A stretch of 64,000 nucleotides of DNA, taken from Azolla caroliniana. Its lineage: Eukaryota > Plantae > Polypodiophyta. A model generated the notes under the pieces. The model searched no databases. It saw only the letters and a program-made list of their open reading frames with translations, and was not told the origin of the DNA. How positions within the stretch are numbered: position 1 is the stretch's first letter; every line of letters begins with the position of its first letter. Positions 19,515 to 45,355 of this stretch are shown here, one piece after another. The position numbers and the translations under genes were made by a program. The DNA lies in contig JBHGNT010000021.1 in the NCBI GenBank assembly GCA_043228905.1, forward strand, positions 10,230,001-10,294,000, in the 5' to 3' direction.

Positions 19515-22500
19515 TGTCGTGAAGAAAACCGGCCATAGGCGGAATCGGAGAGAAAGCGCGTAAACCGGCCCTTACACGGATGAATGCATGACTGGATACT
19601 TTGCACGCGAACCGGTGGATGTAACTACTAAGCCGCACACATTTATGAGAGGGGATTGTGCGTATCCCGGTCAAGGGGGGGGGACAGGGAATAAAGGCAA
19701 GGGTGGAAGAGAAGAACAAAAGGCGCGCAGGGAGGGAGAAAGGGGGGGTTGCAGAACGGAAGGCGGAGCTCTCTCTCTTCGACTTGAATCGTCGCTCTCT
19801 GCGAGTGTCGGGAGGTCGCTGCCTCTGCTTCGTGGACAGCCCGTGTGCTTCTAGCAGAGTCGCTCCCCTTCCCCCTTTGTTTCCTTGAGTCGGTGACTGT
19901 TGTCAGTGTGCGTGAGTAGGGTCCCCGTGTCGGGCCCGTCGCCGCTTTGTCGGTTGTAACCGTCAGAGTTTGTAATCTCTGTCATTATAATTAAGTGTTG
20001 CATTCTGTTTCTCTCTCTCTCGCTTCTACGTGTCGGTGAATCTTTCTCTCTCTTAGTCTCTCTCTCTCGCTCCTCGGTCCAAGACCCCCGTGGTCCTGCC
20101 CCTTTCCTACACGTACGCGCGTAACAACGCGACATATTTGGTGAACCCGACGTGAACAGGGCAGCAAAGGAGTCGAAAGATGAGGGGATCAAAGCTAGCA
20201 GAGGCAATGGTGGTGGTCGTCGACCGGCTGGTGAGCGCTCGTGAGGGAACGGGTACCCTTGACAGAGCCATTGAATCGATCGTCGGTTCTATATGCCGTT
20301 TCGGAGGGAAAGACGCCACAAGTTATTTGGAGGCTTACCGGGCCGAAATGATCCTGAGGGATATCCCGGTGGATAGGCGGTTGTCTGGATTCCCTCGGGT
20401 GGTGACGTTAGGCATCCATGCGGAGGTGCTCGAGGTGCTGGCCGGATGCCAGACTTGGGAGGAGTTCGAGCTGCAGCTCCTCGAGAAGTACGGGTTTGAC
20501 AACTCGCTCTGACTGTCAAGGTAGGACTTCATGGTGTGGGTGGAAAGCCCTGGAAAAGGGAGGAACACGTCGGTGCTCCTCCAGGAGTTCGAAAAACGGT
20601 TCGCGTGGCTGTCGACGTTGGACTGGACGGTGCTCGAAACGAGTCAAGTGCTGCTGTTTGTCAAGTCGGTGGATGCGCTCGACAGGGAAAAGGTGGGTCC
20701 CCTACTGGAAACGGACGAAGGGCTCACGACGGATTGGGCCATGGTAAAACGGGTCTACAGCCGTTTCGACAAACGGCGCGATTGGAGCGACGGAAGCGCG
20801 TCGGGGTCGGGGCCGTTCCCGGGGAGGAGGCTCGAGGAGCCGGTTTCGGTGCCGGTTGGGAGGAAGGAAGAGACCCGAATCTGGCCGGAGTCGAGGTCGG
20901 CATCGAACGACGTGGTCAGAGGCCCGTCCGGAGGAGTAGCTCTGGAGGAGTTAACACAGATGGTGCGCGACCTGCAGATTGCATAGGCCCGAAGAGACAG
21001 CGGTGAACAACCTTGCGATCGGAGGCCGCCGGCTGGGCAGCGGTGCATGTGGTGTGACGCGATCGGTCTCATTCGGAAGGATTGCGCGGATTTCGCCGAC
21101 GCGCTCAGGACCAACGTGGTGTACCTCTAGAACGGGCGGGTGCACGCGAGCGAGACCCGGAGAGCCTTGGAACTGAATACGGGGCACGACGGCATGAAGA
21201 GGTTGATGGAAGAGGCCGCGGCACGGCACGTCGAAGCCGTTAACTACTCAGTGTCGACGCGAATTCGGGTCGGGGGTGATGAGACCCGAAAGGCGAAGGA
21301 CTCCGGATTCTGGCCGCTAGTGCTGGAAGGCCTCTCTGGAGTTCGGCTGAGAAAGGAAGAGGCGGACCGCCTGGAACAGCGGGTCCAGGAGGTCACCGGT
21401 TGGGACGATCCGGTGGAAGAGAAAACGGGCTTCGTAGAAGCCACTTGCCAGAACTACGAGGTTCTGGTGGAGGACAAACAGGCAGGAAAGGCCGGAGGGG
21501 TCGGCCCCCCGAGGTATGAGACTCGGTTTGAACCGAAACCGACCAGTGCCGACAACCCAGGCGTGCCGGATGGGAAGAAGCAGGCGGGGTTTCAGTTGAG
21601 CACCGAAATCGAGAGAGCAACGGACCTACGAAAGGTCCTTGAAGAGTGAATCCTCGACAGTAAAGTGGAGCTGTCATTGCGGGAGGTGCTGGGGATCGCC
21701 AAGAGGGAGTTCCACAACTCTATCGTAGACTTGGTGAAGCGTAAGAGGCTCTCGACGGAGCCGGAACCGGAGAAGCCTGTGGAGGTGCGGACCACACACT
21801 TGGAAGACGAAGCCCTGGAAGACGAGCTGGCGGGAAGCCACTACACGAAGCCGCATTGGGCCAGGGCGACTACGGAAACCCCTGTACGGATCATCAACGT
21901 TCTGGAACCGGTGGTGGCGTTGGTAGACCATGGATCCGAAATCAACCTGATGTCCATGGATTTCTACAAGAAGGGTAATTGGCCGATCAACACCAAGCAC
22001 AGATGGAAGATACGGGCAGCGACGCGCGCCACGGAAGAAATACATAGGGCCTGTCCGAACGTACGGGTGAAAATCGGCGATGTCGAGATCGACCAACACT
22101 TCTTCGTGCCGGAGACGTCCTCGCATCCGGTTATACTAGGAGAGCCATATATCACGGCGGCACGAATGGAGACCAAGGTGCTGGACAACGGTTCAGCCTA
22201 TGCAAGAATCAAGAACCAAGACGGGCGTCACTCGGTCCAGTTCCTAACGGTGCGACCAAATCACGAGCGTAACCGCGAGGCCCTCGGCAGCGAAACCCGA
22301 GGGGATTTTTAGAGAGGGCTATCAAGGCGTGGGGCCGCGATAGTCCGGACTCCCGAGAACAACCCCACAAATGTACAGTACGGAAGAAGACTTGTACCAT
22401 GGGTAGGAAGTTTTGGTTCACCGACAACGGAGGTTGTACTATAACCAGCGTCAGCGGCCGGGAGAGGAAGCGAGCAGAGGAGCAACTCAAGGGATGCGAA

Positions 22501-25500
22501 GTCCTCTTCCCCGACGAAGACATCAGCGGCGCCGTGGAGGCGGTCTCTTTTGACGACACCTTGGGCGAACTACGAAAGGTGATCGATGAAGACCTTAGAG
22601 AAGACCGGACCGTTCCAGTAGGGTCGATGGGAATGTACGAAGTCATCGAGGACTTCGGGGAAAGGATCGGGTCGGATTGGACGGCCCGCGTGGATACAAA
22701 ATACAAGACTGTGGACCGGAAGGTGAGGCCAGTCGCGGCACCCTTACCGGAGGGCAGCGAGGAGTGGATAAAAGGGGTCGCGCGTCGGACCCAAGTTTAC
22801 AAAATCCGGTTGGCATAGGGCACCGGTTCACCGACATAACGCTACGGGAGCTCAAGGTCGGTGGGGGCGGCTTTCTACTGCCGGCAGAGGAGGACCGGTT
22901 CCGGAGAATGCTCGGGAGGCACAGGAAGACTTTCGCATTCTCACCGGAGGAGATCGGGTGTGTAGACCCGATAGTTGTCGAGCCGATGGTGATCTTCACG
23001 GTGCCGCATGTACCGTGGAATCTCAAGCCGATTCCGGTACCAAGAGCTCACATCCCGAAGTTGATGGAGCTCCTGAAGCAAAAGGTGGAGATGGGCATCC
23101 TCGAACCGTCGAGTGCCCCGTATTCGAATCGATGGTTCACGGTGTCGAAGAAGAACGGCACGTTGCGCTTCATTTAGGACCTGCAACCGGTCAACAAGGT
23201 AACCATCCGTAACGCAGGAATCAAACCGACCGTAGACGAGTTCGCAGAGGCTTTCGCCGGAAGGTCGATTTACTCTGTCGGTGATCTGTACTCGGGGTAT
23301 GATCAGTTCCAACTAGCCGTGGAAAGCCGAGACATTACGACGATGCGGACTCCTCTCGGCCTGGTGCGGATGTGTACCCTACCACAAGGAGGGACGAACT
23401 CAGTGGCTCACATGGTGAACACGATGAACAAGGTGCTCAGGGACTGTATCCCGGACATCACCATGCCATTCTTAGAAGACATCCCGATCAGGGGATGCCC
23501 GGTGGAGGAAAAGGACGAGGCAGTCGGGCCGGACGGATGTCGAAATTTCGTGGCGACTCACATCGATGATTGCGAGAAGGTGCTGCAGTGACTAGAAGGC
23601 GCGAGGCTCACCTTCTCTGAGGAAAAGTCGGCCTTCGGACAGTTGGAGATCTTGGTGGTCGGACACCTGTGCGGGCCCTACGGTAGGAAACCATCTCCGG
23701 CAAAGGTAGAGGCCATCTCCGCGATGGGGAACGATTGCTGGTCGGTCACGGAGGTCCGCAGATTCTTGGGAGCATGCGCGTTCTACCACATCTCGATCCC
23801 GCACTACGCACATGTCGCGGAACCCCTCTACGGACTATTGTAAAAGGGGCATAGCTTTGAGTGGAGGACGGAGCACACGGAGTCGGTTCGGAGACTAAAG
23901 GAGGCGCTTATGGCAGCGCCAGCTCTCCGTAAAGTGGTTTACGGCAAGGATGTTCCCATTTGTGTGACGGTGGATACCAACCCGATCGGGATTGGGTGGG
24001 TAATCAGTCAAGAGGACAAGGACGGCGTACGATTCCCGATCCGGTTCGGGGCGAAGGTACTGAGTGAGCGGCAGCGAGGGTACGCCCAAGTTAAGCGCGA
24101 ACTTTGGGGTGTCGTTTCGGCAGTCAAGGCCGACAAGGATTATCTGATCGGGACGGAGGTGATTATCGAGACGGATTGCATGCCGATACTCGGCATGGTT
24201 TCCGGATGCGCGACGCCGGACCTAGCAATGCTCCGGTGGATAGCGTACATTAAGTCCCTGAACCCGGAGATACGACACATCTCCGGAAAGGACAACGCCA
24301 TGGCCGACATGCTCTCGAGGGCAAGGTTCAACGATGAAGACGGCATGGCATGGTTTCGGATGACGAAGAAGTCGGCGAGGACTTCTTCGGGTCGGCTAAC
24401 ATAACGACAAGGAAAGGGAACACTCCGGCGCTTAACGGATTTGACGAAAGCAGGTACGACGGGGAGTGGCTCCAAATCGGGAGGTTCCTACGGACGATGA
24501 CGCCGGACGCAGCATGGGCAAGAGAGGAGGCGAGCCGGATACGGAGGAAGGCGTACCGATTCTTCCTCCGAGATGGGTGCATATGGAGGCACCCAAAGAA
24601 GAGAAGCGGCATCCCACTCCGAGTAGTGGCAAAGGAAGAAGAGCAGGGGAAACTACTGGCGGCATTCCACGAGAGCCCATGGGCCAGACACTGCGGAACG
24701 TGGGCCATGTTCGAGAAGCTGAAGGAGAAGTGCTGGTGGCCGGGGCTATACCAGGACGTGCATCGGTTCGTAACGACTTGCGAAAGCTGTCAGGTGTACT
24801 CCGTAGTCTGACACCGGGACGAGCTACACCCGACCTACCCGCCTACGGTTTATTTCAAGTGGATGGTGGACTTGGTGACGATGCCGATTGGGGTAGGATA
24901 AATGCGATACCTGGTGCTTGCATGGGAAGACTTAACGAACCAGGTGGAAGGCCGTGCACTGCAAAGCAAGACAACCGCGGCGGTATGCCAATTCCTGATC
25001 GAAGAAGTAGTGTGTTGGTACGGGTGCGTTGGGAGGATCGTGGCGGACTGGGGAGAGCTGGATGCGCGGGAGGCCGAAGAGTTGTTCGACCGGCTAGGCG
25101 TCAAACTCTCCCTCACCACGGCGTACAATCCGGAGGCAAACAGAAAGGTGGAACATGGGCACAGACCGATTGTAAAGGCGTTGGTGCGTGCATGCGGTGG
25201 GCAGGTCGGGAATTGGCCACGACTCCTTCCTTACGCACTATGGGCGGACCGAACTACGCACAGTTCGGTGACAGGGTTCATGCCGGCGGAGCTGATGTAC
25301 GGACAAAAGCCGATCATGCTGGTGGAGCGGATGGTTCCTTCGTGGGCGATGGTAGATTGGAAGGACGAAATGAGCCGGGAGAAGTTGCTGGCGACGCGGA
25401 TTCGGCAACTCGAGCGGAGGTCGGAGGACGTGATACGAGCGAAGGAAAAGCTGAGAACGGCGAGGGAGCGGAACAAGACCCGGTTCAACCAGACGCACCG

Positions 25501-26464
25501 GTTGCAACCAAAGAAGATCGAGGAAGGCGACTGGGTCCTGGTATACGACAGCAGCCTCGACAATCAGCACAAGGCGGTGCGAAAGTTTGCTAGGAGATGG
25601 TGCGGGTCCTACATGGTGACGAGCGCGAACGGCAACGGCACATACCACCTCGCGGAACTCGACGGGACACGGTTAGCGGTGCCGGTGGCCGACGAGCCGG
25701 AGCCTGTGAGCGGGAGCGACAACGACAATCAGTTCGGGTCCGGCGGAGAACCGGAGAGCAACGAGTGAGGCCGGTTTTCTTCGATATCTACCCAGCTCTG
25801 GCGCATGCTGGTGGATGCGCGGTTTGGTGGGGGTGGATGTCGTGAAGAAAACCGGCCATAGGCGGAATCGGAGAGAAAGTGCGTAAACCGGCCCTTACAC
25901 GGATGAACGCGTGACTGGATACTTTGCACGCGAACCGGTGGATGTAACTACTAAGCTGCATGCATTTATGAGAGGGGATTGTGCGTATCCCGGTCAAGGG
26001 GGGGGGGGGGGGGACAGGGAATAAAGGCAAGGGTGGAAGAGAAGAACAAAAGGCGCGTGGGGAGGGAGAAAGGGGGGGCTGCAGAACGGAAGGCGGAGCT
26101 CTCTCTCTTCGACTCGAATCGTCGCTCTCTGCGGGTGTCGGGAGGTCGCTGCCTCTGCTTCGTGGACAGCCCGTGTGCTTCCAGCAGAGTCTCTCCCTTT
26201 CCCCCTTTGTTTCCTTGAGTCGGTGATTGTCGTTAGTGTGCGTGAGTAGGGTCCCCGTGTCGGGCCCGTCGCCGCTTTGTCGATTGTAACCGTCGGAGTT
26301 TGTAATCTCTTTCATTATAATTAAGTGTTGTGTTCTGTTTCTCTCTCTCTCGCTTCTACGTGTCGGTGAATCTTTCTCTCTCTCAGTCTCTCCTTCTCGC
26401 TCCTCGGTCCAAGACCCCGGTGGTCCCGCCCCTTTCCTACACGTACGCGCGTAACAACGTGACA
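19515..26464 (+). mobile_element. Full-length tRNA-Trp-primed Ty3/gypsy (Phygy-like) element; LTRs 19515-20134 and 25838-26464
   Basis: Highly similar LTRs TGTCGTG...GACA; PBS TGGTGAACCCGACGTGAA (20139-20156), complementary to the plant tRNA-Trp 3' end; G-rich PPT 25821-25837; flanks CCGG/CCGA. Confidence 0.95.
20180..25768 (+). pseudogene. gag-protease ORF1 (to 22312) and RT-RNaseH-integrase ORF2, with multiple nonsense mutations and frameshifts
   Basis: CMWCDAIGLIRKDC knuckle variant, LVDHGSEINLM protease, DLYSGYDQF / LPQGGTNS RT, VTVDTNPIGIGW..KRELWG RNase H, HESPW..CESC / YNPEANRKVE integrase. Confidence 0.92.
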
Positions 26465-28220
26465 CCGAACTCGACCAAAAATAGAGCTTCGCGTTCCTGA
26501 AAACACACAGAATGATGAGCCTCTGGTCGGGAGCACACGAGCTTCCTACACGAGCAAAGGCCTCACCTTCTTCCCAAATCAGCACAAAGAGAAAACAGAG
26601 AAAGAAAAGAGATCTCCGGACCTCAAACCAACAACAATTCCTTCTCCAAGAAGATGGATCCCTTCTTAGTCCTCTCTCCCCCCCTTTATAGATCAAGGGG
26701 AGAGAAAAGTCGTTACATCAGGCTATTAAGAGAACCAGTTTCGATCCTGGATTCTCTCCTCGAGCTCCTCCCATCAATCCCTTATTCCTCTCTATACGTT
26801 GTCGCGTTGTTACGCGCGTGCGTGGAGAACAAGGCGGGACCACTGGGGTCTTGGACCGAGGAATAGGTGAGGAAAAGAGAGAGAGAGAGAGAGAGAGACG
26901 CTCACTCACGTATAGACAAAGAAGCACATGGGGATGCGTCACAACAACACAGGAGACGCGAGTTGAGAACACTAGAGTGTGTATGTAAATATAGGCCTGT
27001 ATATGTATGTATGCAGACGACTCGAACCGTTACAGCCGACCAGGTCGGCGAGGTGGATGCCGACGCCTGATCACCCATGCACATAGGAGAGCAAGATGGA
27101 GATTCTGCCGGAAGCACACAGGCGTTCCATGGAGCAGAATCAGCCTCCTGAGAACCTGCGCAAAAGAAAGCTATGGAGAACGACAGAGAAGAAGAGCTTG
27201 ATCCCAGTCCGACAACACTTCGTTCCTTCTAGCGCACGTTCCCTTCTCTCCCCCGTCTCCCTCTCTTTTATAGCTCAAGGAGGGAGGCCGTTTCACCCGT
27301 TTACATCACATTAATTCTCTGTCCTTTCGGACAGAGATACTCCTCGATTTCCCTTCTAGAATATTGCTACCTAGGATTTAACCTTTGTGCCTACCTATCT
27401 ACTATACGACAAGGGACGTGCCCACGTGTAAGGGCCGGTTCACACACACTATACACGGTGTCGTGAAGAATTTCGGCCATAGGCGAAAACCGGGAAACAT
27501 TGTCTACATCGGCGGGGTGCATCGTGTGTACGCACCCATGTACATTTGGTGTGAACATCGAGGGCTCCTTTATGGCGCCGAAGAGTAGTCAAGTCGGGAC
27601 AGACGATCCCATGAAAGTCGGTATTTGTCCCACATTGTAACGCGTCCCTCTCCTTGTTCTAGAAAAGGGAGGGAACGCCCTTTGTAAAAGGGTTGCCCAT
27701 TTTGGATTAGAGGGTATACCGGTAGGTTTAGGGTTAGGGTTCTTCTGCTTCTTCTTCTTCCCCTTTGTGTTCGTTTAGGGTTGGCTGCAGCTTGTCTCCT
27801 GTGCAAGACCCCGCTCGGCGCGACGAGCTCGAGAGCTCCCCGATGGCGGCTTGACAGCAGACGACTGTTGTAAACTATCTTGGTCCGGCTCGAAGCCGGG
27901 AGTGTATTCTCTATATATATATATATACATATACGTTTGCGTCTATCTGTGTATATTGGCGTCTTGTTGGTGTCGGGTGCTCCACTCCTTCCTTGCGTTT
28001 CCTGTACATAAGGGCGTGAGTCGGGTCGGGCTGTGTGTGCGTGTGTGTGCGTGTGTGTGCGTGAGTCGGTGTTAAGCACGCTCTCTCTCCCCCTTTGGTT
28101 GCTTCCGGTGTGTTTCTGAGATGCCCCAGAGGCCGTGAAGCACGACTTCCTACGCTCCGTCGCTCCCTAGTCCAAGACCCCCGTGGTCCCGCCTTTCTCC
28201 ACGCACGCGCGTAACAACGC

Positions 28221-31200
28221 TGTCGCGTTGTTACGCGCGTGCGTGGAGAAGGGCGGAACCACGGGGGTCTTGGACTAAGGAGAAGGGGAGAAGGAATAGG
28301 ACTTCGGAATGGAGCTTAGCACAAGAAGAGAAAGAATGAACAAGAGGAAGATGGAGGCAAAATGCTCAACAAGATATATTAGAACCGAAAACCGATTACA
28401 AAATGGCGGCCGCGTAGGCCGCACCGAACGACTATGATAAACCCGAAACCCTAATCCGACGAAGAAGAAAGAAACCCTAAACCTAACGCTCGTCCTATGT
28501 GGTATACCTTTCGCACTCAAAATAGGCAACCCCCACAATGGTGCTCTTCCTCTCCTTTTATAGCACAAGGAGAGAAGACCGTTTACAAAAAGGGTGCTAC
28601 AAAATATCCCCTTTCAATCAATGGGGATATTTCCCTTGATTTTAGGGGAGGTGGGAAGGACGGGTCTTAACTCCCACCTCTACACGAACTACTATGTACC
28701 TATCTCTCTCTCTCACGTGGATGTGCGCGCAAAAGCACATCACCTTTACACTTTACAAATCCTAAGGTGAATTTCTAGCACCATACTTATCACTATTGAT
28801 AAATAGAAATACAACATGTTGATGTGCAACATTGCACATCGCGGGTTTGCTTACTTCGTTCGGTTTTCCGCCTATGGACGAAAATCTTCACGACATCCGC
28901 CCCCACCTAACCGCACATCCACCGGTATGTGCCACAAGGGGAACCAAACGCGAGATTTTCGGCCAAGGCGGCCAACCGAGCCCTTGACAACCTCGTGGGC
29001 TTGCCCGGCTTCGTCTTCCACTTCGAGCAAGTCCACCCCGTCCACACGAACCACCGTCGCCTTCCGGCCCACCATCTCCGCCGAATGGTCTCGAACCGTC
29101 GGCTCCATCCGATCCGCCACACTTGACGACGCTCGCCGAGTCGTTGCCTCCACCCGATCCGCCACGTCCACCGTGTTTCCTCGAACCACCGACTACACTC
29201 GGACCGCCATATCCGATGCCCGCGCTTTCCTCCCCGTTCGGTCCTCCCGAACGCCGTTGCCGACCCTTTGTCCGCCTCGCATATTCTCCGGATCCGCCTT
29301 TTTCGTGCCACGCACCTCGTCGTGCCGACTCTTCTCGCTCCGCGCTTGCCTTCTGTAGGCTTTCCCCGTACGTCGGTGTTGTCCTCCGAATGCGTGCTCG
29401 TGCTTCGGTCCTTCGATGACCCCATCACGCATTTTTCGCCTTCCCTTTGCTTGCCGTGCTCTCTCGCCGTAGAGCATACCATCGTTCCCGTGCTCGTTGC
29501 TTGGACCTCATGCGGCCGCATTGCACGTTTCGCATTCCGCTCCTCTTCGCGTACCCTTTCGGAAAGGTACCTTTCTTCCCCGACCTCCGTTACGCTCGGA
29601 GGAACACCCTCTTGGCCCTCTTGGCCCGCTCGACCGCACACATCCTTCGCGATGTTGTGTTCGTTCTTTTGGGCACATACATCTTCGTTCTCCGCGACCT
29701 CCCTTATGCCTCTCTCGGTGCCTTCATCCGTTGTGGCCTTCGTCCCCTCGCCGCCACCGTCCGCCACTCTTGGTCTCACGTCGGCACTCGCGCCGACCGC
29801 CGGAGTCTCTATAGCCGGTGTGGAGGATCCCTCTCGGGCCTTATCTTCGTGGCCGCCGGTCTTAGCCTCTCCGTAGGCCACCTCTTCCCACCAATCTTCC
29901 CTAGCATCGTGCCAGGTCTTGTCGTCGCCGCCTTCCGCCTCGTATTCGCCTCTCGAAGGCGTGATCCGACCGTCATCTTCGGTCGCTCGATGTGGCTCCT
30001 TCGTAGGCATGCTTGTGTCTTGGCCCTCCGTCGGCCGTATTGCATGCATCTCGTCTCGCTCTTCCGCCGTAGACCCGACCTCCGTGTCGGTCTTCTCCTC
30101 CTTTGTCGCCGTAGCCCGTTCCGACACGGGCTCGCCGTCTTGGACCCACCCGTCCACCATCTCGTACCGGATATCCGTTCCGGTAACCTCGTACGCTCCG
30201 GCCTCCGACTCCTCGCCGCCACCCGCCGTCTCTCCGGTCTTATGTTGATCCGCAACCGCCGTAGTCTCTAGAGTGGGTATGGAGGGTCTCGTTTGTTTCC
30301 GTTTTTCCCCCGAACCATGGTCGTCGTGCCCGGTTAGCCTCCATCTCGCGCTTACCGGCTCCCATCGTAACCGTAACCGTAACCGTAACCGGCCAATCGG
30401 TCTCGCCGGCTTCCTTCGGTTTGGGCCCGGTTCGCCGACCCTTACTCTCTTCTTCTTCCGTGCCGTATTCCGGTCGGGTCGGTTCCCGACTCTCTCCTCG
30501 TTTCCGCTCCGGTCCTCTCCGTCGGACCCACCGTATACGCCCATTCCGGGCCCCGCATACTCGTCTTCGTATGCGCTCTCTCCGGGCCTCACCTCCTCAC
30601 GGTCACCGCCCATCTCTCCGGTCTCACGTTGGCATTCGAGCACAACCGCCGAAGTCTCCGGCCCCGGTGTCAAGGGGTCTTGCCTCCGTCCGCTCCAATC
30701 TTCCTTCTCGTTTCCGTTGCCCGCCTTGCCGCCGTCACCACCCGTCGCACTAAGCCTCATGCCGGCACTCGGGCCGGCCATTGGAGCCTCTAGGATTGGT
30801 GTGGATAAGGACCCGGCACCGCCGCTTGTTGTCTCCGTAGCCGCTTTCGTTCGGACGTCGTTGTCCGCGGCTCCCCCATCTCCGATTCCGTAAGCCTCTA
30901 GTACGCTTGCCACCTCCTCTTCTTCGCCGTTCTCCGCGTCATTTTGTTTGCCCGCCTCGCCGCCGCCACCGCCCGTCGTTCTAGGTCTCGTGCCGGCACT
31001 CGGGCCGACCGCCGAAGCCTCTAGGGCCGGTGTGTGGAAGGTCGCGGCACCACCGCTCGCCTCCTCTCCGCTCGATGTTTTGGGCCGCCGTGCCCCGAAT
31101 CTTCCGCCCACTTTCGAAGTGGCGCTCTCCGCTTCGTAGTCACCGGCCTCATCCTTGGCCGTCCATTCGCCGCAAGACGAGAGGGTTGCTCGCTCCGCAC

Positions 31201-33517
31201 CCTCTCCCATGTCGTCGTCGTTTCGGTGGCCCGCCTTGCCGCCGCCACCGCCCGTCGTTCTAGGTCTCGTGCCGGCACTCGGGCCGACCGCCGAAGCCTC
31301 TAGGGCCGGTGTGTGGAAGGTCGCGACACCATCGCTCGTTTCGTCTTCCTCCTCCATTTCGCAAGCCTCGAGTATGCTCGCGAAATCCTCGTAGAATGTT
31401 TCGGGCAACCGCGTCCCGAAACTTCCGCCCACTCTCGAAGTGGCGTCCATCGCTCCGTAGATATCGGCCTCGTCCATGGCCGTTCTTTTTCCCCGAGATG
31501 AGACAGTCGCTTGCTCCGCACCTTCTCTCGTGTCGACGCCGTGGTCGCCCGCCTTGCCACCGCCACCGCCTTTCACCATAGGTCTTACGCGGGCACTCGG
31601 GCCGGCCGCCGTGATCTCTAGGAATGACGCGTGTAAGGTCGCGGGACCGCCGCTCATCGATGTAATGTCCGTAGCCACCTCCGCTCGGACGTCGTTGTCC
31701 GTGGCTACCCCGCCTCCGTATATGCAAGCATCGGTTATGCTTGCTGCCGCCTCTTCTTCGCCGGTCTCATCCTCATCTCGGTTGTCCGCCTTGCCGCCGC
31801 CACCATCCGTAGCTCTAGGTCTCGTGCCGGCACTCGGGCCGACCGCCGAAGCCTCTAGGGCCGGTGTGTGGAAGGTCGCGACACCGACGCTCGTCTCCTC
31901 CCGACTCGATGTTTCGGGCCACCGTGTCCCGAAACCGTAGTTACCGGCCTCCATGGCCGTCGCTTCACCGCAAGGCAAGAGGGTCGCTTGCTCCGCACCC
32001 TCTCCCATGTCACCGTCGTACGCTCTTCCGGCCTCGATTTTCGCCGTCACAATCTCGCACGCCTCCCATACCAACGCCTCGAAGTCGTACTCCTCCGGTT
32101 GGTCGTGCATCGAGCTCTCTTTCGGCGGTGGTGTGTAGCCGCCCACCGCCCTCTCTTCTCTGCCGGTCGCGGGTCGTGTTGTGGCCGACCACCTCTTATC
32201 ATGTTGTCGGCACACCCGTTCTACTTCGGGCCACTCCTCGGTGAGACCATGCGCCCCATAATCGTCTTGAAGCTCGAACATGATGTCCATCCTCTCCTCA
32301 TGATGGACCGTCTTCAAAAATAGGAGGACTTTGTCCGCCCCCACCGATCTTCGTTCCCACTCCGAGAGTTGAGAGAAACGACGCTCGAACTCTCGGAATG
32401 CCTCTATTGCGCTCCGATGGCGCCTCGCCGACGCCATCCACCGATCGAACTCTCGCCGACCTCTTACCTCCGATTCCGCGCACCCGTATGCCTCCATTAG
32501 AGCCCCTTCAAAGGACTCCCACGATTCGTGAGCTTCTTGGAGCTCCTTGACCTCCTCGTACTTTGATGCGGCCGCCGCTCGACGAAAGAACTCTAGCCTC
32601 GTCGCTTCGTCCACGCCCATCCCCGTCATTTCCGCATCGTAGGCTCTCAAAAATTTTGGGACCTCCTTCCCATCGAACCGGCCGACTAGACGGACCACCC
32701 TTTCGACCGCTTGTTGAGCCGCCTCTCGCCTCGCCCTCTTCCGTCCGGCGTCCATCAAGATCTTTGTCATCATCTCCTCGAAGTCGAAGCCTTCTTCCAT
32801 CTCTTTCTCCCTTGCCGCCCTTCACGTCGGGTTCACCAAAGATGTCGCGTTGTTACGCGCGTGCGTGGAGAAGGGCGGAACCACGGGGGTCTTGGACTAA
32901 GGAGAAGGGGAGAAGGAATAGGACTTCGGAATGGAGCTTAGCACAAGAAGAGAAAGAATGAACAAGAGGAAGATGGAGGCAAAATGCTCAACAAGATATA
33001 TTAGAACCGAAAACCGATTACAAAATGGCGGCCGCGTAGGCCGCACCGAACGACTATGATAAACCCGAAACCCTAATCCGACGAAGAAGAAAGAAACCCT
33101 AAACCTAACGCTCGTCCTATGTGGTATACCTTTCGCACTCAAAATAGGCAACCCCCACAATGGTGCTCTTCCTCTCCTTTTATAGCACAAGGAGAGAAGA
33201 CCGTTTACAAAAAGGGTGCTACAAAATATCCCCTTTCAATCAATGGGGATATTTCCCTTGATTTTAGGGGAGGTGGGAAGGACGGGTCTTAACTCCCACC
33301 TCTACACGAACTACTATGTACCTATCTCTCTCTCTCACGTGGATGTGCGCGCAAAAGCACATCACCTTTACACTTTACAAATCCTAAGGTGAATTTCTAG
33401 CACCATACTTATCACTATTGATAAATAGAAATACAACATGTTGATGTGCAACGTTGCACATCGCGGGTTTGTTTACTTCGTTCGGTTTTCCGCCTATGGA
33501 CGAAAATCTTCACGACA
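28221..33517 (-). mobile_element. Very young non-autonomous Trp-primed LTR element; 675-bp LTRs 28221-28895 and 32843-33517
   Basis: LTRs differ at only two positions that I could find; PBS 32821-32838; family PPT 28896-28915; TSD ACGC/ACGT; no pol. Confidence 0.95.
28907..32800 (-). CDS. 1297-aa Gag capsid domain fused to a long repetitive low-complexity E/G/A/T/R-rich tail
   Basis: N-terminal ~205 aa align with gag at 20180 (RFDGKEVPKFLRAYDAEM vs RFGGKDATSYLEAYRAEM; GLTEEWPEVERVC vs GLTTDWAMVKRV); uninterrupted ORF from PBS to PPT. Confidence 0.8.
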   Translation of the reverse strand: MEEGFDFEEMMTKILMDAGRKRARREAAQQAVERVVRLVGRFDGKEVPKFLRAYDAEMTGMGVDEATRLEFFRRAAAASKYEEVKELQEAHESWESFEGALMEAYGCAESEVRGRREFDRWMASARRHRSAIEAFREFERRFSQLSEWERRSVGADKVLLFLKTVHHEERMDIMFELQDDYGAHGLTEEWPEVERVCRQHDKRWSATTRPATGREERAVGGYTPPPKESSMHDQPEEYDFEALVWEACEIVTAKIEAGRAYDGDMGEGAEQATLLPCGEATAMEAGNYGFGTRWPETSSREETSVGVATFHTPALEASAVGPSAGTRPRATDGGGGKADNRDEDETGEEEAAASITDACIYGGGVATDNDVRAEVATDITSMSGGPATLHASFLEITAAGPSARVRPMVKGGGGGKAGDHGVDTREGAEQATVSSRGKRTAMDEADIYGAMDATSRVGGSFGTRLPETFYEDFASILEACEMEEEDETSDGVATFHTPALEASAVGPSAGTRPRTTGGGGGKAGHRNDDDMGEGAERATLSSCGEWTAKDEAGDYEAESATSKVGGRFGARRPKTSSGEEASGGAATFHTPALEASAVGPSAGTRPRTTGGGGGEAGKQNDAENGEEEEVASVLEAYGIGDGGAADNDVRTKAATETTSGGAGSLSTPILEAPMAGPSAGMRLSATGGDGGKAGNGNEKEDWSGRRQDPLTPGPETSAVVLECQRETGEMGGDREEVRPGESAYEDEYAGPGMGVYGGSDGEDRSGNEERVGNRPDRNTARKKKRVRVGEPGPNRRKPARPIGRLRLRLRLRWEPVSARWRLTGHDDHGSGEKRKQTRPSIPTLETTAVADQHKTGETAGGGEESEAGAYEVTGTDIRYEMVDGWVQDGEPVSERATATKEEKTDTEVGSTAEERDEMHAIRPTEGQDTSMPTKEPHRATEDDGRITPSRGEYEAEGGDDKTWHDAREDWWEEVAYGEAKTGGHEDKAREGSSTPAIETPAVGASADVRPRVADGGGEGTKATTDEGTERGIREVAENEDVCAQKNEHNIAKDVCGRAGQEGQEGVPPSVTEVGEERYLSERVREEERNAKRAMRPHEVQATSTGTMVCSTAREHGKQREGEKCVMGSSKDRSTSTHSEDNTDVRGKPTEGKRGARRVGTTRCVARKRRIRRICEADKGSATAFGRTERGGKRGHRIWRSECSRWFEETRWTWRIGWRQRLGERRQVWRIGWSRRFETIRRRWWAGRRRWFVWTGWTCSKWKTKPGKPTRLSRARLAALAENLAFGSPCGTYRWMCG

Positions 33518-36500
33518 ACGTGACAACGGTTTGCGCCTGGGGACGGTTTTCTTCATGACATCCGCCCCCACCTAACCGCGCATCCACCGGTATCCGCCAA
33601 AATTGGGTTCCTATGGGAGAAAACTGATCCTTGCTTTTATTCCTCGTTTACCGGTTCATCCTCCGCCTCAGGCTGCTCGTCGTCGTTGTCCATGCCCCCT
33701 AGCCCCGGCTCCCCGTCGTGCCGTTTCTTGAACGCTTTGATCCTCTTCCCCGGTACCGGTATCGCCATTCTCGTACCGTCGAGCTCCGCGAATGGTACGT
33801 CCCATTGCCGTTGGCGCCTGTTACTACGTAAGGCCCGAACCACCTCCTCGCAAACTTCCGCGTGGCCATGTGCTGATTGTTGAGGCTGCTGTCGTAGACT
33901 AGCACCCAGTCGCCTTCCTGGATCTTCCTTGGCCTGAACCGGTGTGTTCGGTCGAACCGGGCTTTGTTCCTTATCCTCGCTACTCGAAGTTTCTCCGCGG
34001 CTCGCTCTACGTCCTCCGGCCTCTGCTCGAGCTGTCGAATCTACGCCGCCAACAGTTCCTCCCGGCTCATCTTATCCCTCCAGTCCACCATGGCCCACGA
34101 GGAGATCGTTTGCTCTGTTGGCATGATCGGCTTCTATCCGAACATCAGCTCGGCCGGCATGAACCCGGTTACCGAATTGTGCGTAGTCCGGTCCGCCCAC
34201 AAGGCATAAGGTAGGAGCCGTGGCCAGTCCCCGACTCGGCCTCCGCACGCCCGTACTAGCGCTTTGACAATTGGCCCGTGTCCGCGCTCCACCTTCCCGT
34301 TTGCCTCCGGATTGTACGCTGTGGTGAGCGAAAGTTTGACTCCTAGCCGGTCGAACAACTCTTCGGCCTCTTCTACATCCAACTCACCACGGTCAGCTAC
34401 GATCTTCCCTACGCACCCGTATCGGCATACTCCGTCCTCAATCAAAAACCGGCACACGGCTGTCGTTGTCTTGTTCTGCAGGGCTCGGCCTTCAATCTGG
34501 TTCGTTAGATCTTCCCGAGCCAGCACCAGATACCGCATCTGTCCTACCCCCATTGGCATCGTCACCAAATCCACCATCCACTTGAAGTGGACGGTCGGAG
34601 GGTAGGTCGGGTGAAGCTCGTCCCGATGTCGGATCATGGAGTGCACCTGACAGCTTTCGCAAGTCGTCACGAACCGATGCACGTCCCGGTATAGTCCCAG
34701 CCACCAGTACTTCCCCTTTAGCTTTTCAAACGTGACCCACGTTCCACGGTGTCCAGCGCACGGGCTATCGTGGTACGCCGCCAGCAAATCCTCCTATTCC
34801 TCCTTCTTCGCCACCACTCGGACCGGGATGTCGTTCCTCTTCTTCGGGTGCTTCCATATGTATCCGTCCCGGAGAAAGAATCGGTACGCTTTCTTCCAAA
34901 TTTGGTTGGCCTCGTCCGTTGTCCATGCCGCTTCTGGTGTCATTGTTCTCAGGAACCCGCCGATCTGCAGCCACTCCCTGTCGTACTTGCTCTCGTCGAA
35001 ATCGTTAAGCGTTGGAGAGCATTCCCTGCCGGTTGTTACGTAAGCCGCCTCGAAGAAGTCCACGCCGACTTCCTCGTCCTCTGAAACCTTGCCGCCGTCG
35101 TTTTCGAACCTAGCCCTTGAAAGCATGTCGGCCATGGCGTTGTCTTTCCCAGAAATGTGTCGTATTTCCGGATTCAGGGACTTGATGTACGCTATCCACC
35201 TGAGCATTGCCAGGTCCGGCGTCACGCATCCGGAAACCATGTCAAGGATCGGCAGGCAGTCCGTCTCGATAATTACCTCTGTCCCGATTAGGTAGTCTTT
35301 ATCGGCCTTTACCGCCGAAACGATACCCCAAAGCTCGCGTTTAACCTGGGCATATCCTCGTTGTCGTTCACTGAGGACCTTCGCGCCGAACCGGATCGGG
35401 GAACGCATGCCGTCCTCATCCTCTTAGTTGACGACCCATCCAATCCCGGTCGGACTCGTGTCTACCGTTACGTAAATTGGAGTGCTCTTTCCGTAGACAG
35501 CCTTTCGGAGCGCCGGAGCCGCGGCAAGTGCTTCCTTCATCTTCCGGACAGACTCCGTATGCTCGTCTCTCCACTCGAATTTTCGCCCCTTTTTCAGCAA
35601 CCCATATAACGGCTTTGCGACGTGAGCGTAATGCGGGATCCATATGTGGTAGAACGTGCATGCTCCCAAGAACCTCCGAACCTCCGTGACTGAGCTGCAG
35701 TCGTTCTTCATCGCGGAGATGGCTTCTACCTTAGCCGGAGACGGTTTCCGGCCGTATGGCCCGCATAGGTGTCCGACGACCATGATCTCTGATTGCCCGA
35801 AGGCCGATTTTCCCCCGGAGAAGGTGAGCCTCGCTCCCTCCAACCTCTGCAGCACCTTCTCGCAGTCGTCGATGTGCGTCGCCACGAATTTCCGGCATCC
35901 GTCCGGTCCGATCGTCTCGTCCCTTTCCTCCACCGGGCATCCCTTGATCGGGACTTCGTCCAAGAACGGCATGGTGATGTCCGGGATACAATCCCTCAGC
36001 ACTTTGTTGATTGCGTTCACCATGTGAGCCACCGAGTTCGTCCCTCCTTGCGGCAGGGTACACATCCGTACTAGGCCGAGAGGAGTTCGCATTGTCGTGA
36101 TGTCTCAACTGTCTACGGCAAGCTGGAACTGATCGTACCCCGAGTAGAGGTCACCGACCGAGTAAATCAACCTTCCGGCGAGGGCCTCCGCGAACTCGTC
36201 TATTGTCGGTCTGATTCCTGCGTTTCGAATGGTCACCTTGTTGACCGGCTGCAGGTCTTGAATAAAGCGCAGTGTGCCATCCTTCTTCGGCACGCTAAAC
36301 CACCGATTCGAGTATGGGGCACTCGATGGTTCAAGGATTCCCATCTCGACCTTCTCCTTTAACAGCTCCATCAACTTCGGGATGTGAGCTCTAGGTACTG
36401 GAATCGGTTTGAGACTCCACGGCACATGCGGTACCGTGAATATCACCATCGGTTCCACGACTTTCGGGTCTACGCACCTGATCTCCTCTAGTGAGAATGT

Positions 36501-37065
36501 GAAAGCCTTCCCGTGCCTTCCGAACATTCTCCGAAAACGGTCCTCTTCCACCAGCAGTAGGAAGCCGCCCCCACCGATTTTGAGCTCGCGCAGCGTTATG
36601 TCGGTGAACGTGTGTCCTATGCGGGCCGGATTTCGTAAACTCGGGTCCGACGCAACCCCCTTTATTCGCAACTCGCTGCCCTCCGGCAAGGAAGCCGCGA
36701 CTGGCCTCACCTTCAGGTCCACAGTCTTGTACCTCGTGTCCACCCGGGCCGTCCGATCCGACTCGAGCCCTCTACTGAAGTTCGTGATGACTTCGTACAT
36801 CTTTTCCAAACATACCGGAATCGTCCGGTCCTCTTTAAGGACTCCTCCGACTACCTCCCGCAGCTCCCCCAAGGTATCGTCGAAAGAGACCGCCTCCACG
36901 GCTCCGTTGATTTCCTCTCCGAGGTCGAGGACGCCACATGCCCGAAGTCGCTCCTCCACCCTTCTCTTCTTCCGGCCAACAACGTCGACTATCGTACACC
37001 CTCCGTTGTCGGAGAACCAAAATTCCCTACTTATAGCACAGGTCTTCTTCGCTATCATACACTGG

Positions 37066-40000
37066 AAGGGTTGTCTATTTTGAGGGAGAGAGGCATACCA
37101 CTTAGGTCAAGGGTTTCCTATTCGGTTTTAGGGTTTCGGTTAGGGTTTTCTTCTTGGGTTTTCCTTTAGGGTTCTTATAGTCGTTTGGTGCGGCCATGGC
37201 GGCCACCATTGTAAAGCGTTTATGTTTTCTTAATAGAACTTCTTGTTGAGTATCTTGACTCGATCTTCTTCATCTTCTTCTATCATAATGTTATATTCGT
37301 TCTCTTCTCCTCTTGAGCTATGAGCTAATCTTCCATTCGTTGTCTTAACCTTTCTCCTCTTCTCCCTAGTCCAAGACCCCTGTGGTCCCGCCCCTTCCAC
37401 ACGCACGCGCGTAACGCGACATCTTTTGGTGAACCCGACGTGAAGGGCGGCAAGGGAGCATGGAGATTGAAGAAGACTTCGACTTTGAGGAGATGATGGC
37501 AAAGATCATGATGGATGCGCGACGGAAAAAGGCGAGGCGAGATGGGGCTCAACAAGCCGTCAAGAGTGTGGTCGATCGAGTCGGCCGATTCAACGGGGAC
37601 GATGTCCCGAGGTTCTTGGAAGCATACGATGCCGAGATGGCAAAAGGGGGCGTAGACGAGGCGATGTGGCTAGAGTATTTTCCTCGAGTGGCGGCGGTAT
37701 CGGTGCACAAGGAGGTCAAGGAGCTACGAGAAGCTCATGAGTCGTGGGTGTCCTTTGAGGGAGCCCTATTGGAGGCGTACGGGTACACAGAACCGGAAGG
37801 AAGAGGTCAACATGATGCGAGGCGGTCGGCCACAACACGGCCCGCGAGCGGCAGAGAAGAGAGAGCGGTGAGTGGGTACACACTACCGCCGGAAGAGAGC
37901 TCAACGCAAAACGGTTCGGAGGAGCTCAACCTAGACGTGCTAATACGGGAGGCATGTGAGCTTGTGAAGACGAAAATCGGAGCCGAAGAAGGGCTTGTCA
38001 TGGAGACGGGCCGGAGACAATCGGAGGATGTGGAGGAAGAAGCCTCCCTAGACGTAGAAGACGGGGCCTATACGGAGGCCGGGAGAGCGTACGACGGCGA
38101 CATAGGAGAGGGTGCGGAGCAAGCGACCCTCTTGCCTTGCGGTGAAGGGACGGCCATGGAGGCCGGTAACTACGGATTCGGGACATGGCGGCCCGAAACA
38201 TTGAGTGAGGAGCGGACAAGCGGCGGTGCCGCGACCTTACACACACCGGTCCTAGAGACTCCGGCATCCGGCCTGAGAGCCGGTGTGAGACCTAGAGCGA
38301 CGGGCGGTGGTAGCGGCAAGGCGGGCTACCACGGCGACGAAGAGAACGAGGAAGAGATAGCCACGGACCACGGCGTCCGAACGAAGGTGGCTACGAACAT
38401 GGCATCGGCGAGTAACGGTACCGGGACTTTTCCCACATCTATTCTAGAGACTTTAGCAATCGGCCCCGAGAGCCCACATGAGACCGGAGAGACGGAAGGT
38501 GGCGGCGGCAAAGGTTTAGGGTTTAGGGTTTGAAACGACGACGACGACGAGGAAGGTCATAGCGGACGGAGGCAAGACTTCTCGACACCGAGACCGGAGA
38601 CTATGGCGGTTGCGCTCAAATGCCAACATAAGACCGGAGAGAAGGGCGGTGGTCGTGAGGAGGCGTGGCCCGGAGAGAACACGTACGAAGATGAGGATGC
38701 GAGGCCCGGAACGGGCATATACGAGAGGACCGACAGAGAGGTCGGGAGCGGCAAAGAGGAGAGAGTCGGGAACCGACCCGACCGGAAGATGAACCGGTCG
38801 ATAATCCGACATGACCGGAAGACGACGCGGAAGAACATTGGAGCGGGGTCCGGTCAACCGGGCCCAAACCGAAGAAGAGCCGGCAAGGCCGCATTTGTTC
38901 GGACAAACATGTACCGGCCGGTTACGATTACGGAAGGGAGCCGACCAAACCGGAACTCGATTGGCCGAGACCGATCCGGGCGAAGGCTAAGTCGGCATGA
39001 TTGGAGGTCGAGGCGAAAGGGCCACAACACCCAATGGGAGCCGGTGAGCACGAGAAGGAGGCCAAGCATGCACAAGGAGTACAACTCGGTGGGAGGCCAA
39101 GAGGGAGAGGAACCCTCCTCACACATTCTTGAGACTTTGGCGGTTGCGGATCGACGTAAGACCAAAGAGACGGCGGAAGGTGGTGAGGAGACGGAGGCCG
39201 GAACGGACAAGGCTACCGGAACGGGTACCCAGTGCGTGAAGGCGGACGAGCATGGCCAAGACGGCAAGTCAGAGTCGAAAGGGGCTACGGCAACGAAATA
39301 CGAAGAGGCCGACGCGGAGGTCGGGACTACAACAAGGGAAGCGTGTAACACGAAGCATGCATTACGGCATAGAACGGAGCTTGCACTATGGCCGGCGAAG
39401 GGCCAAGAAGCAAGCATGCACCTAGAAGAGCCGCAACGAGTGACCGACGATGACGGTCGGAGGAAGCCTTCGAGAGGCAAGCGCGGGACGACGGGCAGTG
39501 CGACGAGACGCCAAGATCGACAGAACGAGGCGGGCGTGATCGGCGTGAATGAAAGATTGTGTCTGGGAAAATGGAGGGGATGCACGGAGAACAACAGGGT
39601 ACACACCGGGAAGAGAAAACGTGGCGGCTTCCCGGAGGGCATACAAGGCCAAGCGGGCCAAGAGGGCGCAAGTCGAGGCGAGGCGATAACGAGAGCCTCG
39701 AGGGACACCGACACGGAGGTCGGGATGATGGTACGCTCTACGGCGAGAGAGCACGACGGGCAAAGGAGAGGCAAGGAATGCGGAATGGGGCCACCTAAGG
39801 GCCAAAGAATGAGCGCATATTCAAGGGACAACATCGACGCATGGGAAGAGCCTACGGAAGGCAAGCGCGGAGCGGGAAGAGTCGACACACCGAGGTGTTC
39901 GACATGCGGAGACGATGAAACCAAGGGAGCGGCACGCAAAGAGCGGAAACCGGAGTGCGACCGGAGAGATCCGGAGCGCATCCGGAGGACATGCGAGGCA

Positions 40001-40505
40001 GACCAAGAGGGTGTACCTCGGGGCGAAGCGGCAACATCGGAGGTTGTGGAGGACACCGAAGATGAGAGCACTGACATGGATGTCGGGGAAGCAACGTACC
40101 TTTTCGAAAGGGTACGCAGAGCGGAGCGGAGCGCGAGACGTGCGATGTGGCCGCGTAAGGGCCGAACGACAAGCACGAGGATGATCGGCGAGCATGGAAG
40201 GCTATGTCTTGAGAACCGGAGGAGGTGCGTGGAGTACAATGGGCTACGGAAGCGCGGCGTCCCAGAAGGCATGCGAGGCGAAGCGGGCCAAGAGGACGAG
40301 AGACGGGATGAAGCGGTGACGGGAGTTGCGAAGGACATTGACATGGTGGTCGGGATGATGGTACGCTCTACGGCGAGAGAGCACAGCGCGCAACGGAGAA
40401 GCGAGGAGCGTGTAATGAGGTCGTTGAGGGACCGAAGAACGAGCGCATGTTCGGGAGACAACAAGGGCCCACGGAAAGAGCCTACGGAAGGTGAGCGCGA
40501 AACGG
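37066..40505 (+). mobile_element. Second, diverged copy of the gag-long-tail element (R-U5 to 37421, Trp PBS 37427-37444, ORF pieces 37460-38533 and 38603-~40500; 3' end missing)
   Basis: MEIEEDFDFEEMMAKIMMD, RAYDGDIGEGAEQATLLPCGE and EERVGNRPDR match the 1297-aa ORF. Confidence 0.85.
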
Positions 40506-43370: not shown

Positions 43371-45355
43371 CTGTTTACCAAACTTTCATGTTTACCAAAC
43401 TTTATTGATGATTTATCATATATGTCTACCAAATTCATTATAGATAGATTCTATATATTATGTTGATCTCAAGTATCTCTCCACGGTATAGTATGCCATC
43501 AAGTCTATCCAAGAAGGATTAATCAAACCAAACAGAATTAAATAGAATCTTTCTAGACTTAATATACTCTTCCAAGTATTTGCCCATGGTAACATGTCAT
43601 CAAGTTCATCTAATGATTGCCTATCAAATCAAACATATTTGAAATGAGTCCTTTTGTATCAGGTCTACACATGTAATATTTGCTCACTACATACCCTCAA
43701 GTTCATCCGAGAGTGATGCTTTAAATCAAACATATTTAAAATCAATTTCTTTGTATTACATCTAGAGAAGACATTTGCCCAATAACTTTTACCCAATAAC
43801 TTTACTAATTTGGAGCACTATGATCATGTCAATATTCAACAATAGAGGACTCAAAAGTTGTTGGTGAAATATTGATAGATTACACATCGACAAACTAATA
43901 AATGGACTCTTTTTTAGAACAATGTGCATATTGGAATATCGAAACCAATAAACAAGTTATTGATGTTGTGCAAATTTATGAAGTAACAAAAATCAAGGAA
44001 AGAAACATGACAACAAAATCTTTTAAATGGGGTTTCCATCTAATTATAGGAAAATACTTAAAAATACCCCTAATTTTGTATTATGTCAAGAACGCCTTTG
44101 TACCATTGAAAATTCTACTTTCTTCCATCGCCATGATTTGTGACTTTGGCTCAATTTAGACCTCCGATGGCAAAACAAATATACATGCATAGGCATGGTA
44201 AAAGTAACTAAGAGCATTTCGAGAAATACGAGAACTACACAAATTGGTACAAACCAACCATTGCCCAATTCCTATAAGGATTGTGTTAATGATTTCATCA
44301 TTGTAGCAATTACTCCATTATTTGTAGCAAATAGTTCAATATTTGCACCAATTACTACATTCAGTTTTCTTTGTCTATGACATCAACATTTACATTTGCA
44401 TTAATAGGCATTAAGAGTGACAAGCAAAAAGCTCTTTCTAATCCTTCAACTCCCCATATGGCTATTGTATCTCTCTTTATTTTTCTACTTAGTGTGTTGA
44501 TTAAAGAATCAACAGAGCTTGGAGTAGATTATTTATTCATGAGGATTATCTTTGCATAAAAGATATCTTGAACATTGCCGTCAAAAGAATAGAATTGCTA
44601 GACATCATTTTCACAATGTAAGACATCTAAGCGTGAATGACAATGTCTTTTCATGACACAGCACTTTATTCTACAAATAATATGTATGACATCCTCTAAC
44701 ATATATCTGATGTTGGAAGAACAGTTTTGAGGCATGGAACACAATTGATTGTCAAGATGTCAATCTAACATCTCCTTTAGACAACATTGAAATTAAAACT
44801 AGTTTGTATGGTGCAAAATTTTGACCTCTTAAAGAATCTTTGAACTCAACCTTCACACTAGGAATAATTTAGTACATTTTGATAGGTTTCTCTGATCATA
44901 TAATTCAGTAGATTTTGTCAACATGTTTGGCCTTCGAAATGCTTTATGTTCTTGGAATTAGCTTTTGCATTTACATATGTATTGTGACCCAAAGATGTGA
45001 TGATGGCTCGACCCCATGTAGATGATACATTCTCCACAAAATCATATTTTACAAATAGTTGTAGAAAACAAGGGAGTGATTCAAGACAGTAGAATCACAT
45101 ATGGGAGGAACTTATTTTATTTCCTCAATTTTTAACGAATGAGAATGATGTTGTCATTTGAGGTCAAGAGACATCGTCATCAGCTCGCTCAGTACTTAAA
45201 ATATTTGCTTCCGGAAGGGAAATGGCTAGAGAATCACAGTTACCAAGTTTCCATAGTGATGATGTTCCATGGCCCCTCCAATTATATTGTGTTGGTCAAA
45301 TGCGGTAAATCAAGTCATATGATTATTGAAATGACTCTCCAGGATTTTAGCATAT

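Follow-up and report, generated by a model that had tools for sequence, protein, structure and literature searches.

A Gag-only LTR retroelement of undescribed form in Azolla caroliniana, with a long tail apparently selected for frame and a candidate Arg/Trp tip

A pol-less, gag-only design is known among LTR retroelements as TR-GAG. TR-GAG1 encodes 433 aa in an ORF that includes a zinc finger and is without internal duplication, and the class was defined as shorter than 4 kb (PMC4350172; see also PMC13570524); transposition of a TR-GAG has been demonstrated in Arabidopsis (PMC8704663). Phygy is described as a non-chromovirus Ty3/gypsy lineage with a 4-bp NCGN target-site duplication (TSD) and a Trp primer-binding site (PBS), whose listed elements measure 7.7-10 kb and have a polyprotein and no extra ORF, and the passages and table entry consulted contain no pol-less form (PMC6317226; see also PMC6911290). 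Gag-derived proteins that contain only the C-lobe of the capsid are also known, namely Ty1 p22/p18 (PMC8458377) and Drt2 (PDB 9rxy), and these are described as restriction factors, encoded either by a transcript that starts internally or by a gene that has been endogenised. Among other systems, Drosophila HeT-A is Gag-only, borrows its RT, has a length-polymorphic Gag region and co-localises with the Gag of its partner (PMC2173066), and MaLR elements are non-autonomous LTR elements without pol (PMC4724089).

Here we describe a Gag-only, non-autonomous LTR element of undescribed form in a 64,000-nucleotide stretch of Azolla caroliniana DNA, hereafter the window. Like TR-GAG, it has LTRs, a PBS, a polypurine tract (PPT) and one Gag-capsid ORF, it is without protease (PR), RT, RNase H (RH) and integrase (IN), and it is recent and multi-copy (at least two copies). 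However, because its 5297 bp exceed the 4-kb limit, it works like a TR-GAG but is not classed as one, and this 5.3-kb element further differs in the absence of a zinc knuckle, a repetitive tail of ~1090 aa, a seemingly conserved Arg/Trp (R/W) tip, the N-lobe-less forms in its family and a capsid clade far from that of its helper. With Phygy it shares the 4-bp NCGN duplication, a PBS that we take to be of tRNA-Trp identity, a helper without extra domain and a helper Gag that matches a Physcomitrium protein; judged by TSD, PBS, helper domains and Gag similarity, it appears to be of Phygy type. Unlike Ty1 p22/p18 and Drt2, the C-lobe-only gene of the pol-less family has no other ORF beside it in its LTR element, and its product has a long tail. 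HeT-A is a non-LTR, telomeric element with a jockey-type Gag, to which no homology is claimed, and MaLR elements are mammalian and ERV-L-related; they have a single ORF, and we know of none with a tail like that of the present family. The initial annotation knew of no description of this architecture, which is true of the capsid-linker-tip protein, and of an N-lobe-less mobile element, in the literature searched (mainly open-access, as distinct from repeat databases), but not of the pol-less gag-only design itself.

The element occupies positions 28221-33517 of the window on the minus strand. Its LTRs (5', 32843-33517, with TATAAA at 33184-33179; 3', 28221-28895) are 675 bp each, with TG..CA ends and two differences, which at the plant rates that we assume would presumably date the insertion to ~0.11-0.16 million years ago. 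The PBS TGGTGAACCCGACGTG (32823-32838, minus strand) lies just inside the 5' LTR and is identical in the helpers; it is taken to pair with the 3' terminus of plant tRNA-Trp. The PPT adjoins the 3' LTR, and positions 28897-28939 (minus strand) hold a ~30-nt cis element common to the helpers, translated as the last codons of the ORF, followed by the stop (28907-28909, a few nt from the PPT) and the PPT. A 4-bp NCGN-type duplication flanks the element, the left copy being ACGC (28217-28220) and the right copy ACGT (33518-33521), one transition (C>T at a CpG) apart. The insertion point is 4 nt before the end of a solo LTR (27459-28220, plus strand; remainder 33522-33525), which has its own perfect TSD, ACGG, at 27455-58 and 33526-29, and sits in the LTR of a decayed pol-bearing element. 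Given the near-identical LTRs, the 4-bp duplication and the nested position in the solo LTR, the element is a true recent integration. These findings uphold the initial annotation in its view of a recent pol-less satellite with its own capsid, whose LTRs differ at two positions and whose PBS, PPT and termini are shared with the complete family, the LTR ends being common to both. In three sequencing runs guessed to be RNA, 26-29 of 30 bins of the element are covered, which alone does not establish transcription, and one contig ends ~77 nt past the TATA box, which is likewise not proof of it.

The neighbourhood is rich in related elements. The decayed host of the solo LTR retains its RT-RH-IN part and the start of its 3' LTR at 33530-37074 (minus strand), with the rest of that LTR at 26800-27458. 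Across 26800-33560, three related elements are thereby inserted one within the next, and every insertion used an NCGN site in the LTR of the earlier one. A decayed complete helper-type element lies at 19515-26464 (plus strand), with a knuckle-bearing Gag, PR, RT, RH and IN and the TSD CCGG/CCGA; NCGN duplications thus occur at the element itself and at these neighbours (ACGG/ACGG and CCGG/CCGA). An older pol-less copy, truncated at both ends, is found at 37068-40500 (plus strand), with part of an LTR, the PBS, the capsid N-lobe and a tail. The annotation had described this diverged copy, at 37066-40505, as keeping long stretches of the frame, and one frame indeed runs for 1012 codons (37460 to about 40500), but with one stop, and the capsid C-lobe is missing, the reverse of the N-lobe-less deletion described below. 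That sole stop arises from a short insertion of plant telomere-like repeats (GGTTTAGGGTTTAGGGTTT, 38514-38532). At 37066-37074 the 5' part of the pol-bearing element lies head to head with what remains of the 5' LTR in the second pol-less copy, probably a deletion or inversion junction. Other decayed elements at 6429-8858, 15250-17692, 57429-63214, 40823-43450 and 51838-54902 comprise a gypsy gag, two copia elements, a LINE with zf-RVT and gypsy pol pieces, and 10860-11212, 12089-12694 and 13635-14338 hold one 27-bp tandem array and two short tandem duplications.

The interior of the element is filled by a single 1297-codon ORF (28907-32800, minus strand, ATG at 32800) without internal stop, as annotated. 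We found this to be far beyond chance: ~43 stops are expected from base composition and none is observed, the longest ORF in 900 Markov shuffles of order 1-3 had at most 778 codons, and the other five frames contain 16-36 stops each. The caveat that GC-rich sequence is stop-poor therefore fails to explain the ORF, whose sense strand has only 10-11% T. An antisense ORF was rejected (no Pfam match, 16-24 stops per antisense frame). The protein, encoded throughout on the minus strand, starts with an N-terminal helix (aa 1-32; 32705-32800), a capsid N-lobe (aa 33-107; 32480-32704) and a capsid C-lobe (aa 111-208; 32177-32470), the slowest-changing region of the family, after which about 1090 residues follow. 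These form an acidic, mostly disordered linker with in-phase repeat units (aa 209-1146; 29363-32176; net charge -71, with 84% of windows below 0 in a FoldIndex-type score) and a basic Arg/Trp-rich end (29006-29362) with two W-R-I-G-W copies (aa 1212 and 1227) and C-S-K-W-K, aa 1147-1297 having a net charge of +33. The repeats and basic patch noted earlier could be placed precisely, with near-identical units at 31787-31879, 31232-31324 and 30953-31045, a diverged unit at 31550-31642, and the patch RKKKRVR ... RLRLRLRLRW, whose form is not conserved across subfamilies, at 30323-30460.

We found no CCHC, YxDD or HHCC motif in the ORF, the sole DHGS match lies in disordered sequence, unlike the protease context of the helpers, a Pfam search of the 1297-residue protein returned no match, and there is no Pol-like similarity to three helper sequences, all in keeping with the annotated capsid without CCHC, PR, RT or IN. 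A decayed pol was rejected on the absence of homology to pol in the three helpers. A membrane anchor was rejected because no 19-residue window exceeded a hydrophobicity of 1.1 and, across 16 proteins, the helical moment stayed within the level of shuffled sequences.

The N-terminus is, by its predicted fold, a two-lobed retrotransposon capsid. The first 215 aa are modelled at pLDDT 93 (67-row alignment), and the best 23 matches in structural comparison are all retro-type capsid or capsid-derived chains, led by dArc1 (Z 10.2, rmsd 5.9, 158 aligned residues), a match below the caution level for helical proteins, though the rows agree; the C-lobe compared with Drt2 (PDB 9rxy) gives Z 6.7. Foldseek with this model returned nothing at E<=0.001, its best ten rows being Arc, PNMA2 and Ty3 capsids. 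A single-sequence fold reached pLDDT 66 and its structure search gave no matches, a profile search of PDB sequences gave 0 matches, and an Atlas search had no usable match for the tail and only Gag clusters for the relative P0177, which also has no relatives in the viral sequence collection. Named capsid relatives come from Physcomitrium, Riccia and Adiantum, which points to a non-seed plant as the likely host.

We identified 5 long relatives, 16 more distant ones with shorter tails, which are known as proteins with their LTR context outside the data, and 119 fragments; further copies are the second copy in the window, locus L001 and near-identical contigs in four DNA runs. Tail length ranges from about 280 to 1200 aa, and the zinc knuckle is absent in every distant relative inspected. 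In a C-lobe tree of 29 rows, which excludes six candidate autonomous rows without the anchor pattern, 15 of 16 tail-bearing capsids form one branch (support 96/99) apart from the helper capsids, to which they are ~32-35% identical. Because of this separate branch and identity of about one third, the pol-less lineage is old and not a recent deletion product of the local helper. The clade of pol-less Phygy-type (Ty3/gypsy) elements of which the window element is a member is both ancient and diverse. In two separate, well-supported branches of the tree the N-lobe is absent, and the N-terminal helix is joined directly to the C-lobe (L003, L004, P0003, P0310, P0183 and P0340). P0055 and P0082, which stand apart from the family, each combine a capsid with an acidic tail, have no knuckle and group among other autonomous Gags; the same design may have arisen there independently. 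P0179 has the family tail on a divergent, helper-like capsid, either a capsid swap or an assembly chimera; the swap was rejected as a claim, a single clade being compatible with the data (p-AU 0.28).

An intact helper is present on the metagenome contig L004, where a Gag with knuckle and protease is followed by a frame change and then RT-RH-IN; its pol contains RT, one RNase H region and integrase and nothing else at E 0.01, with neither chromodomain nor aRH, and the helper Gag is similar to the Physcomitrium protein. The frame change after protease falls at GGATTTTT(A/G) (L004 ~3131-3149; window 22301-22311), likely a -1 frameshift site. The helper on L004 is followed by a pol-less element whose ORF reads into the LTR, but as the LTRs on either side of the junction differ, it may be an assembly join. 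Sequence shared between parasite and helper is confined to the LTR ends, the PBS and the ~30 nt that precede the PPT. In the pol-less subfamilies (L004, L005 and L012 versus the window) the LTR 3' end occurs in two forms, which correspond to two different helper subfamilies.

Next we consider the selection acting on the ORF, using DNA alignments of six sequences (the window element, its second copy and four of 16 loci, with the near-identical L001 excluded). All 77 merged indel events in the tail keep the frame versus 14 of 36 in the LTRs, events that are partly dependent because one deletion can count against several partners, and single gaps are a multiple of three in 85/107 cases in the ORF versus 60/239 in the LTRs. 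For four DNA runs, the 12 of 235 joint rows that were listed give 10 distinct joints with known filler, every one of them in frame, and the 12 small indels listed, out of 38, lie without exception in LTRs; the runs presumed to be RNA contain two frameshifting ORF indels, each supported by a single contig of low depth. Three intact pairs have 0 stops each versus 4.7-5.1 expected, and the frame is retained across 20-30% DNA divergence. Among the other 11 loci, seven old copies of low coverage have accumulated 13 stops in 1264 aligned codons, as well as several frameshifts, while no stop occurs in L002, L009 and L012. Given two frameshifts in L010 and two stops in each of L005 and L007, all at high coverage, an intact frame is not an absolute requirement in cis.

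The capsid is constrained, with dN/dS of 0.30-0.45 versus ~0.8 for neutrality in five pairs (below the neutral 95% range in two of them), including 0.39 between two C-lobe-only subfamilies. In the tail, substitutions are spread near-evenly over codon positions, dN/dS is 0.67-1.18 versus 0.72-0.81 in neutral simulation (10 pairs), and private changes include 1 stop versus 6.8 expected and 71 synonymous changes versus 75 expected. Tails are mosaic, L004 being 90% identical to the window element over 770 nt of tail and 75% in the capsid, which limits comparisons between regions. Selection on tail composition was rejected, polarised changes being near neutral with only a weak hint of acid retention. 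Collectively, these comparisons indicate that the frame of the tail is under selection while its amino-acid sequence appears to drift about neutrally. The annotation had proposed a functional tail and had named random indels and stops, or a dN/dS of about 1, as evidence against it: indels and stops prove not to be random, but dN/dS in the tail is near neutral, and the repeats or tail sequence are not supported as the functional part.

The end of the tail is a further candidate for conservation. Family ORFs end in a basic Trp-rich stretch, W-W/R-I-G-W, often with W..W.CSKWK, which is reached by 47 of 58 distinct family proteins of at least 440 aa. The stop follows the motif at 10 (eight sequences), 15, 17, 26-34, 66-70 or 85-107 residues, and at 113 in L004. 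The other 11 fall short of the motif, owing either to a contig end or to a true break, which look alike here, and P0168 and P0196 look frameshifted. Motif identity between GC-rich and AT-richer subfamily groups is 0.51 (core 0.71), compared with 0.20-0.34 in the rest of the tail, 0.56 in the C-lobe and ~0.3 in a neutral no-stop simulation; this comparison depends largely on one deep branch, and constraint at the nucleotide level is possible in the distant subfamilies, which are known as protein only. A 27-aa tip match at 59% has p 0.005 at a background of 0.33, uncorrected for windows, and by site rate the motif core ranks 12th of 270 tail windows (top 5%), other tail windows being equally slow. 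The motif DNA has no counterpart in the three helpers. Conserved RNA structure at the motif was rejected (z 0.1 in the window element and -4.5 in L003, against only 12 shuffles). There is thus moderate evidence that the R/W tip is conserved, and the data point to a length-free linker with a conserved C-terminal R/W motif, a design beyond the initial annotation.

Accounting for these features, we consider it somewhat probable that the protein combines a capsid anchor, a length-free linker and a C-terminal RNA hook for packaging in cis into helper particles. The C-lobe would enter particles for which the complete helper supplies most of the protein, and the long acidic tail would serve as a spacer with no demand on its length or sequence. 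The basic Arg/Trp tip would take over from the missing zinc knuckle and hold the RNA of the element itself. A cis preference could arise because the tip is the last part of the protein to emerge from the ribosome, which by then has reached the 3' end of the RNA being translated, and reverse transcription and integration would be performed by helper Pol via the common PBS, PPT and LTR ends. Translation, co-assembly with helper Gag, RNA as ligand of the tip and cis preference are all presumed in this model. Since a linker joins two needed ends, it would jointly explain frame selection, neutral sequence, free length and the stop pattern, and with the knuckle missing, no part of the protein is a better candidate for RNA binding than the +33 tip. 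A shell of the uncleaved 141-kDa protein alone is unlikely because 540 tails of 117 kDa exceed the 17-28 MDa capacity of the lumen, taking the subunit number and radii of Ty3, and N-lobe-less forms presumably could not build a lattice alone; for both reasons the protein would supply only a minor share of the subunits of helper particles, or act there as an adaptor. That C-lobe fragments of Ty1 Gag act by binding Gag favours an adaptor, but such a fragment blocks assembly in Ty1. Further points against an adaptor are the defects of L005, L007 and L010 and a capsid only ~32-35% identical to those of helpers. A complex prediction of helper capsid with a C-lobe-only protein, run without alignments, scored 0.00, which counts neither for nor against the model.

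The neutrality of the tail also fits the main, though rather unlikely, alternative, namely that the tail protein is inert and that an open frame to the PPT keeps ribosomes on the whole RNA, avoiding nonsense-mediated decay or translation-linked silencing. Under this alternative a dN/dS equal to neutral simulation, the near-expected number of synonymous changes and an ORF ending a few nt from the PPT, or within the LTR in L004, are all natural, and translation-dependent silencing of a plant LTR element has been documented (PMC8892269). Neutrality is expected under it as under the adaptor model, but the stop pattern is not: stops cluster after the motif and not before it across subfamilies, and the Trp-rich end, most exposed to stop mutations, is still open. 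Furthermore, the C-lobe is constrained even in N-lobe-less copies, and short non-coding derivatives could presumably serve more cheaply. Adaptor and surveillance effects may both act.

Whether the tip need bind RNA at all is a separate question, as it could bind protein reached via the linker, either Argonaute as an anti-silencing GW hook or helper Pol, which we regard as quite improbable. GW pairs number 1-5 in the last 130 aa versus 0-2 in the entire rest of 18 proteins, though binding itself is putative, and GW motifs are reported to act in viral silencing suppressors (PMC6563293). Some members, however, have WWIGC in place of the motif, or a motif without G. The context is strongly basic and aromatic, unlike known GW Argonaute hooks, which are Ser/Gly-rich, and the C-terminus of a capsid normally faces the RNA-filled lumen.

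The loss of the N-lobe in two separate branches and the resemblance of the C-lobe to Drt2 (Z 6.7) could also suggest a copy-number brake like Ty1 p22 or Drt2, in which C-lobe and bulky tail poison helper particles and the element is a passive passenger; indeed, C-lobe fragments of Ty1 Gag such as p18 act by binding Gag and block assembly rather than help it (PMC8458377). This is very improbable, as the gene resides in mobile elements of high-coverage contigs, where selection would favour their own spread, and the conserved tip is left unexplained. That the long ORF is an unselected by-product of a stop-poor, recently amplified repeat region or of decayed pol is hardly credible: low T content and recent amplification, which hides decay, would favour it, but it is already contradicted by the in-frame indels and by old single copies, which readily gain stops and frameshifts, and the frame persists despite 20-30% divergence in sequence without homology to pol.

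Returning to the capsid-anchored linker and tip, we tentatively raise the possibility that a satellite lineage has rebuilt Gag as a cis-acting tether. Its parts would be the dimer lobe of the capsid, a stretch of as many as 1200 residues on which selection demands nothing but frame, and an Arg/Trp hook for nucleic acid that is new to the lineage; a restriction-factor design would thereby have become a boarding device. The family offers a natural dissection, with a constrained capsid lobe, a seemingly frame-selected linker, a short conserved tip and mobile forms without N-lobe, and it makes a protein adaptor versus evasion of RNA surveillance directly testable. It would be a clean natural case of an open frame selected without selection on amino acids, and it bears on how non-autonomous retroelements enter helper particles and why Gag-only elements keep their gene.
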